Source: Euryarchaeota archaeon UBA346 (GTDB lineage: Archaea; Thermoplasmatota; E2; DHVEG-1). From it: a DNA stretch of 59,121 bases. This document shows positions 23,274 through 24,513 of the stretch, one piece after another. The first letter of the stretch is position 1, and every line of letters begins with the position of its first letter. Below the pieces are notes generated by a model that saw only the letters and a list, made by a program, of their open reading frames with translations, was not told the DNA's origin and searched no databases. The stretch covers positions 1,810 through 60,930 of the forward strand of contig DAJP01000050.1 in assembly GCA_002496355.1 (NCBI GenBank), in the 5' to 3' direction. A program made the translations under genes and the position numbers.

Positions 23274-24494
23274 CTATTTTAACAGATGTAATCTATTCCT
23301 CAGCGAACTATAAAAAAACCTTCGTATGATCTTCCATTTATACTGTTGGACACTTATTTGTCCGGTGATGACACCCATCATGAGGTCGGTGAGTACCGGA
23401 TCTTTGCATGCGATGGAAAACACTTTCTCAGCGTATTCCATGCTTCCTCGCTTCACAACCCGTAAAATAAGGTCGATATCCCGTCCAAAATCTTTTTGCC
23501 AGCGTATCTGATATTGAGCTAAGACCTCTTCTGTTGGCTGTTCTTTTTCTAAAGCTTCCGTGATTACCTGGGCAGCGATTCGCCCTGACGCCATCGCGTA
23601 ATAAATCCCCTCTCCCGATAAGGGGTTGACAAATCCTGCTGCGTCTCCGACGAGGAGCAGTCGGTTCAAATAAGTTTTTTCCAAAGGATGGGTCAGTAGC
23701 GCTCCACCTTTTACCGGTTCTTCTTTTAGGTTTTTCGGAATCAAGTCTTTCTCTTTTAATAGTGTGAGATACTCCTGATAACAATGCAGGATATTGAGTT
23801 TCTGCTGTTGAGGTTTATCTACTTGAATGATCCCAAAACCAATGTTCAAATGCCTCTTTTTCGGGAACACCCAACCATATCCTGCGACTGTCTTGAACCT
23901 CGAATGGATATAACAATGACGTGATTTTTTGAAATACTGATCCATGATTTGTTCATCCACCTCGAATTCTTGCAGGATGCAGATTCCCATACTTGTCCTG
24001 GCTCTTCGAAGTTCAAAGTGTTTCGCAATCGGGCTTGTGACACCATCGGCGCCAACGATGATTTCTGAGCTAATCGTTGCTCCTTGATCGATGGTGACTT
24101 GAGCGATGTCGTCAGATAGATGAACAGCTGAGACTGAAGATCCGTCCTGGAACACCGCGCCAGCATCCTTTGCGAACTTCACCAATTCAAAATCAAATTT
24201 TTTCCTCAAGATCGTCGCGATGATGGGAGTTTCTTTGAAAATTTCAATCTGATGCTGTAACGATGGAGAATACACTGTCCCACTTGAGGTATACGCTTCA
24301 ATAATCGTATCATTCACAACATAGGGGAATCTCTGAAGCACGCGAATCGGTAGTCCCCCGCCACAGGGTTTGTCGCGTGGAAATTTTTCCTTATCAAGTA
24401 AAAGCGTCTTAAAACCTTTTTCTGCAAGAAATTTTGCTGTTGTCGAGCCTGCAGGTCCAGCCCCGACTATTGTTACATCGTAATCTATTTTAAT
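23274..24494 (-). CDS. Geranylgeranyl reductase family flavoprotein (digeranylgeranylglycerophospholipid reductase-like)
   Basis: The ORF track starts at the GTG at 24341. The same frame is open to 24503 and encodes the FAD fold [44 protein letters not shown]. No ATG/GTG/TTG lies in that extension, only ATT (24494) and ATA (24488). The C-terminal part has [23 protein letters not shown]. Confidence 0.8.
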   Translation of the reverse strand: [406 protein letters not shown]

Positions 24495-24513
24495 TCCCCT
24501 ATCTTAAATTTGA

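Follow-up and report, generated by a model that had tools for sequence, protein, structure and literature searches.

A gene of the geranylgeranyl reductase (GGR) family in the genome of Euryarchaeota archaeon UBA346, an uncultured member of the Thermoplasmatota, very likely starts translation at an AUA codon. The gene lies on the minus strand of a 59,121-nucleotide stretch of contig DAJP01000050.1 (hereafter the window; positions given without a contig name refer to it), which is contig C89 of a 1.66-Mb, 130-contig, 80.6%-complete genome. The related genomes with which it is compared are metagenome bins, and all of the evidence is comparative. This evidence argues strongly for an intact and expressed gene whose start is the AUA at 24488-24486: no canonical start precedes the conserved N-terminus, the ATA stands at the position of the orthologues' ATG, a Shine-Dalgarno (SD) motif lies ahead of it at the usual distance, and constraint is seen only on its downstream side.

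A reductase frame with ATA at the position of ATG

Read 5' to 3' on the minus strand, the region runs TAA (24506-24504) GAT AGG GGA ATT (24494-24492) AAA ATA (24488-24486) GAT TAC GAT GTA ACA ATA GTC GGG GCT GGA CCT GCA GGC. The stop-to-stop frame (23274..24503) comprises 409 codons, and no ATG, GTG or TTG appears in it before the GTG at 24341-24339, which is codon 55 of this frame, or codon 50 with the ATA as codon 1; the 54 codons between the in-frame TAA and this GTG contain no canonical start. An earlier note on this DNA, made from the sequence alone, had described this layout, and a second reading of the minus strand confirmed it. The note had also placed the FAD-binding GGR fold ahead of the first canonical start, and both GAGPAG (24464-24447) and PCGGG (24368-24354) are indeed located upstream of the GTG, as is the purine-rich AGGGGA that it reported ahead of the ATA. 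Public gene calls nevertheless begin the reductase at the GTG (P0002). Among 1113 coding-like open reading frames (ORFs) of the genome, the distance from stop to first canonical start has a median of 6 codons and a 95th percentile of 36, and a hexamer coding-score screen finds a coding-like stretch of at least 15 codons ahead of the first canonical start in about 31 of them, although the screen is insensitive and missed tiaS and pdxT, two genes described below. Such rarity indicates that the missing start of the reductase exceeds what chance would produce.

The segment left out of the public calls holds the FAD-binding part of the protein. Counted from the ATA, GAGPAG occupies residues 9-14, so that the GxGxxG signature falls within the first ~15 residues, and it is missing from the GTG-started product. 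The translation further carries PCGGG (residues 41-45), GYGWVFPKK and a GDAAG motif, all of which align with 3OZ2, the digeranylgeranylglycerophospholipid reductase of Thermoplasma acidophilum; the PxCGGG cysteine, YxWxFPK and GDAAG are conserved motifs of the GGR FAD enzymes. The model TIGR02032 (geranylgeranyl reductase family) matches residues 5-311 with 219.6 bits (cut-off 158.8).

Comparison with orthologues identifies the ATA as the counterpart of their start codon. The gene starts ATG AAA/ACN TAY GAY GT, with a G-rich motif ahead, in ten further species from the genus and family, and about 110 of the 120 best database relatives begin M-x-Y/F-D-V, with GTG at the homologous position in one. 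The ATA GAT/AAA TAY GAY of the ATA-bearing genes aligns with the ATG AAA/ACN TAY GAY of these orthologues. Such ATA-bearing genes are found in six lineages: the window, L009, L046, L047/48, L052 and L049-51. The closest species (L009/G020, a distinct species at 86% identity) reads AGG GGG ATT ATC ATA GAT TAT GAT, and the metagenome lineages read ACT ACT ATA GAT (L046), TCT GAC ATA GAT (L047/48) and TCT AAA ATA GAT (L052). In L049-51, recovered from three samples, the sequence is GGG TTT ACT ATA AAA TAC GAT with a TAA upstream and no canonical start; judged by this alignment, ATG has simply become ATA in a gene of the M-K-Y-D-V type. ATA accounts for 15% of the Ile codons in long ORFs of the genome, and in the ATA lineages the codon at the start has not drifted to ATC or ATT. 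The earlier note had looked to the orthologues for an ATG at this place: the more distant species do have it, whereas the species itself and its closest relatives do not, which indicates that the start codon has changed, and the finding stands.

The codon is also reproducible. The 355-amino-acid (355-aa) form is called on 11 public contigs, and we compared eight of these, from eight different JGI metagenome samples. All eight independent assemblies share TAA ... AGG GGA ATT AAA ATA GAT TAC GAT, one of them having as its only difference AAT for GAT upstream of the ATA. An assembly or sequencing error as the source of the ATA is thereby ruled out.

The motif ahead of the ATA is of the type used elsewhere in the genome. 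AGGGG is the most enriched 5-mer (10.4x) upstream of 315 unambiguous ATG starts of the same genome, where SD words begin mostly at -14 to -10; here it begins at -12 relative to the ATA. The motif is kept in the sister lineages as (G)ACAGGGGG/A, and five of the six lineages have a GGGG(G/A) run 6-7 nt ahead of the ATA, the sixth, L049, having TAGGG 6 nt ahead. The features of the locus are collected in Table 1.

Table 1. Coordinates of the reductase locus and its flanking genes within the window.
Feature	Position	Strand	Observation
Proposed initiation codon ATA (AUA)	24486..24488	-	Homologous position to the orthologues' ATG; invariant in six lineages
Shine-Dalgarno-like AGGGGA	24495..24500	-	AGGGG starts at -12 from the A of ATA
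Six-base spacer ATT AAA between SD-like motif and ATA	24489..24494	-	Contains the rejected start ATT 24494-24492
In-frame TAA closing the frame upstream	24504..24506	-	Present in all 8 assemblies
48 codons after ATA with GxGxxG and PCGGG, left out by gene callers	24342..24485	-	17 synonymous / 0 non-synonymous vs closest species; aligns from 3OZ2 residue 4
GTG, first canonical start, used in public calls	24339..24341	-	355-aa product
Proposed full reductase coding sequence, 404 codons plus stop TAG 23276-23274	23274..24488	-	TIGR02032 219.6 bits; dN/dS 0.10-0.14
UbiA-family prenyltransferase, upstream; stop TAG 24516-24514, 25 nt ahead of ATA	24514..25518	-	Pfam PF01040
Amine-oxidase/CrtI-like FAD enzyme, downstream; ATG 23273-23271 abuts reductase stop	21870..23273	-	PF01593; TIGR02734 below cut-off

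Weighing the alternatives to initiation at AUA

If the gene is read from the AUA, base pairing between the 16S rRNA 3' end and AGGGG(A) at 24500-24495 would place the small ribosomal subunit, and the AUA would be read by the ordinary initiator Met-tRNA (anticodon CAU), with C34 facing A as a mismatch in the third position of the codon. The protein would then begin Met-Asp-Tyr-Asp-Val, presumably with Met as its first residue, and would possess a complete FAD-binding fold. A near-cognate start is expected to be less efficient than AUG, so that output of what is probably an accessory enzyme is likely to be low; low expression of the reductase by this means is plausible.

Several considerations weigh against this reading. 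A review of archaeal initiation gives the start codons as AUG, GUG and UUG only (PMC7531240), and aIF1 is reported to destabilise complexes formed on non-AUG codons (PMC6237735). For three lineages out of the six (L009, L046 and L047) no stop interrupts the frame as far upstream as a TTG within UbiA, so that a different start is possible there. Moreover, no enrichment of SD-like motifs is seen ahead of ATA or ATT in the pre-start regions of the genome (6.1% and 5.7%, against 5.5% overall), and the 9.7% found before ATC in the same genome-wide test is no higher than for unrelated codons such as AAA. Initiation at AUA would therefore be an exception limited to individual genes and no general habit.

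Among the alternatives, the one that fares best also places the start at the AUA but attributes it to termination-reinitiation: ribosomes ending the UbiA gene would advance 25 nt along the mRNA and begin again at the first codon they can use, a non-AUG codon being tolerated because the ribosome is already loaded. The tight packing of genes on one strand, the 25-nt gap and the TAG-ATG junction with the next gene would suit such a route, as would two of the near-cognate starts described below, the FlaJ-like ATA that overlaps an upstream TAA and the pdxT start inside the pdxS stop region. However, the conserved and well-placed SD-like motif suffices for positioning, the gap from UbiA stop to ATA differs by lineage (25, 26 or 36 nt), and the near-cognate starts of tiaS and ribB have no same-strand gene directly upstream. 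We consider reinitiation unlikely.

A second alternative is that the gene is a decaying pseudogene, or that only the 355-aa product of the GTG is made, without the FAD-binding fold, and that paralogues carry the function. Other GGR paralogues are indeed present in the genome (the C32 copy and a frameshifted copy on C83), and gene callers predict the truncated form. The pattern of substitution speaks otherwise. Over codons 2-50 after the ATA, the window differs from L009/G020 by 17 synonymous and no non-synonymous changes and from L046 by 15 synonymous and one non-synonymous; pN/pS for these codons is 0.00-0.20 in all pairs of ATA lineages, compared with 0.06 in an ATG/ATG pair, and whole-gene dN/dS is 0.10-0.14 in the ATA lineages, the same as that of ATG-bearing orthologues (0.11 in an ATG pair). 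The 404-codon frame is unbroken in all six ATA lineages, at dS values from about 0.1 up to saturation, and the 49 codons that the short product lacks are the most constrained part of the gene, holding both GxGxxG and the PCGGG cysteine. Such strong purifying selection after the ATA excludes both the pseudogene that the earlier note had allowed for and the GTG-started protein, leaving very little probability for either.

Initiation at the ATT of 24494-24492 (AUU), giving Met-Lys-Ile-Asp-Tyr-Asp-Val, is more improbable still. This codon is in frame, is a near-cognate listed in translation table 11 and is common to the closest species, L009, but it directly follows AGGGGA, which would put AGGGG at -6 instead of the usual -14 to -10, and it is replaced by ACT or TCT in L046, L047 and L052 and by TTT in L049, all of which keep the ATA and all of which lack a canonical start. 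Indeed, the six bases between motif and ATA read ATTAAA, ATTATC, ACTACT, TCTGAC or TCTAAA according to lineage, while the G-run is constant. Since these bases are free to vary and the ATA is invariant, they behave as a spacer and not as codons. The earlier note had offered a choice between AUA, AUU and a mutated or mis-sequenced start; of these, AUA is upheld by its homology to ATG, whereas AUU gives way because it abuts the SD-like motif and is not retained in the sister lineages, and mis-sequencing does not survive the eight assemblies.

Least credible is a start further upstream, either at a TTG within the last part of UbiA, with the TAA at 24506 read through, or by frameshifting into a UbiA-reductase fusion: a TTG 24 codons ahead of the ATA is reached without a stop in L009, L046 and L047, and gene callers use it (P0003, P0035), but a TAA interrupts that stretch in all eight assemblies of the window species, a gap 1 nt longer puts the TTG out of frame in L052, which has an upstream stop of its own, and no amino-acid conservation is seen between TTG and ATA. 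Nor is there a fixed frame relation between the two genes, the distances from UbiA stop to ATA being 25, 25, 25, 25, 26 and 36 nt and the relation 1, 2 or 0 (mod 3) by lineage, and fusion by frameshifting or read-through is therefore unsupported.

Reassignment of AUA to Met was considered and rejected. ATA occupies conserved Ile positions in the reductase itself (for example in the T-I-V preceding GAGPAG), tiaS is present, and a tRNA-Ile(UAU) was not found in the genome as assembled (80.6% complete); together these indicate that the elongation code is standard.

Origins of the proposed ATA start and other near-cognate starts of the genus

In a maximum-likelihood tree of 75 orthologues the ATA-bearing reductases fall in three places: the window with L009 and L046 beside an ATG-bearing sister, L047 with L052, and L049 beside ATG- and GTG-bearing sisters. 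Well-supported branches force three changes of start. The C-terminal 200 residues of UbiA give a different picture, in that all five ATA-GAT loci, and only those, form one long-branched clade with support 100/100. A single origin of the ATA is thus rejected, as the reductase tree requires three changes and the UbiA tree unites only the ATA-GAT loci. That the UbiA tails form one clade and the reductase bodies two suggests a recombination breakpoint near the intergenic junction, and the two trees are most simply read as one origin of the ATA-GAT junction, alongside a divergent UbiA allele, followed by spread through recombination, the ATA-AAA form being independent. We have settled on a history in which the ATA start has at least two origins, each of them kept under selection.

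Further genes of the same genus appear to use near-cognate starts. Within the window, no canonical start precedes the IGIDDTDS motif of tiaS (50057..51415, minus strand), whose start is an ATC at 51404-51406. In 20 of 20 species of the genus the sequence is GGTGA, six variable bases, then ATC TGG ATA GG; the 30 bases upstream are near-invariant and correspond to a divergent promoter region that tiaS and the gene at 51451..52422 have in common. At the position of the ATC or beside it, four outgroup orders carry ATG, GTG or TTG. The gene resembles the reductase in having an SD motif (GGTGA), six unconstrained bases and an invariant near-cognate codon, in the same genome and the same window. It differs in that its ATC is fixed throughout the genus and beyond, whereas the reductase has ATA in some lineages and ATG in most species of the genus.

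The gene for RNA polymerase subunit H, rpoH (C43 8914..9246, minus strand; L076-L096), directly follows a tRNA-Lys gene and has no canonical start ahead of its HKLVPEH motif. It reads (T/C)AG GAG GAA TGY AGT ATC GCA GCC in 21 of 21 loci from 20 species, with a GGAGG ahead of the invariant ATC; the ATC is also found in a neighbouring genus, and ATG in another genus and in other orders. A RibB-like gene (C113 19084..19785, minus strand; L097-L118) shows GGTGA, 4-7 bases and then ATT in most of 22 species, otherwise ATA or ATC, with a conserved TATA-like box upstream (cccaatatttatttta); in three species an ATG occurs three codons further on.

The two remaining cases are bound up with the end of a preceding frame. 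A gene for a FlaJ/TadC-like membrane protein (C25 575..1483, minus strand; L119-L140) corresponds to the C-terminal half of paralogues of about 600 aa, and the GTA TAA that ends the upstream ORF overlaps its ATA AAG (as ATAA) in 22 of 22 species. This locus may be either a conserved split with restart at AUA or a -1 frameshift site. For pdxT (plus strand, 39056-39067) most species have CTG at 39056-39058, four have TTG, and one has ATG, as do the outgroups; this codon overlaps the end of pdxS (GGC TGG TAG). A pdxT start at the ATA of 39065 was rejected: that codon varies synonymously (ATA/ATC), and the NTG three codons upstream overlaps the pdxS stop. The alignment suggests that pdxT probably starts at CUG in its own genome. 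In the four outgroup genomes checked, tiaS, rpoH and pdxT have ATG, GTG or TTG.

Relation to known reductases and initiation systems

Among proteins of known structure, the reductase matches 3OZ2 (E 8.8e-24, with the alignment beginning at 3OZ2 residue 4) and the Sulfolobus GGR (3ATQ/4OPC; E 3.7e-16), and it shares the GxGxxG and GDAAG motifs with both. Unlike them, it scores far below the cut-offs of the digeranylgeranylglycerophospholipid reductase equivalogs NF041080 (124.1 against 580) and NF041160 (105.7 against 780), and for this reason it is not filed as the membrane-lipid reductase. The C32 paralogue is the better fit, scoring highest with the Thermoplasmatales lipid reductase model at 354.8 against the cut-off of 780. 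The reductase lies in the one-strand gene order UbiA-UbiA-reductase-CrtI-like, a presumed operon. We read it as an accessory prenyl-chain reductase.

Additional GGR relatives in the genome have disturbed frames of other kinds. A paralogue on C83 (30970..32168, minus strand; L003/L004) lies in two overlapping frames of 234 and 237 codons and is either a frameshifted pseudogene or an assembly error. On C5 (6071..7084, minus strand), the GxGxxG of an FAD-dependent GGR-like ORF immediately follows a TGA, and 103 codons pass without a canonical start; an ATG stands 2 bases upstream in another frame (ggtATGAcctatcaagGTTGAT), and the arrangement could reflect initiation at ATC, a frameshift or a faulty assembly.

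A possible common cause of the near-cognate starts is offered by the initiator-type tRNA(CAU) of the genome (C74 3787-3857, minus strand), which has the loop CCCAUAA, with C33 in place of the near-universal U33, a GGG:CCC anticodon stem and G1-U72. Of the genomes sampled from the order, 56 of 63 carry the C33 pattern (GGGCCCATAACCC; 54/59 and 2/4 in its two sampled families), compared with 6 of 338 other Thermoplasmatota. C33 blocks formation of t6A37 by the Escherichia coli and yeast enzymes (PMC8887486), and in yeast non-AUG initiation is twice as high when t6A is lost (PMC4717488). It is conceivable, although we give it only a low likelihood, that start-codon selection is relaxed across the order, the C33 initiator tRNA letting AUA, AUC, AUU and CUG serve as starts, with the reductase as one symptom. 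A caveat is that t6A acts beside the first base of the codon, and AUH (AUA, AUC or AUU) starts mismatch at the third. If true, such relaxation would explain the unusual starts of tiaS, rpoH, ribB, pdxT, the FlaJ-like gene and the reductase in the order.

AUH starts are established in bacteria (infC, pcnB) and in mitochondria, and are included in NCBI table 11. The AUU starts of E. coli infC (encoding IF3) and pcnB resemble that proposed for the reductase in having an SD motif ahead, an AUH codon in a single conserved gene, a mismatch at the third position and lower output. They are, however, bacterial and experimentally proven, and infC takes part in an IF3 feedback loop, whereas the reductase is archaeal, would be served by aIF1, aIF1A and aIF2, and is known from sequence comparison; its codon, moreover, is AUA, and is polymorphic between close species (ATG, GTG, ATA). 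Animal mitochondria likewise present AUH starts (AUA/AUU) to a tRNA with a CAU anticodon, their tRNA-Met carrying a modified C34, but AUA means Met in their elongation too, whereas it means Ile in elongation in the genome described here. In archaea, ribosome profiling of Haloferax found about 30% of putative alternative start sites to be near-cognate, and these were set aside (PMC7261190). Our search of the literature, whose coverage was incomplete, found no paper in which an archaeal gene is given AUA, AUU or AUC as its main start.

On this reading, all public calls examined for this reductase are wrong: they are either 49 residues short, lacking the FAD-binding fold and the cysteine of the catalytic site, or start too early, at a spurious TTG. 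Other genes of the group are likely to be miscalled in the same way, because common gene callers consider ATG, GTG and TTG only. The loci described here supply a set of native 5' regions for in-vitro study of AUH initiation. Together, the AUA of the reductase and the fixed AUC, AUA and AUU codons of housekeeping genes in the genus provide comparative evidence for the natural use of AUH codons by archaeal initiation complexes.

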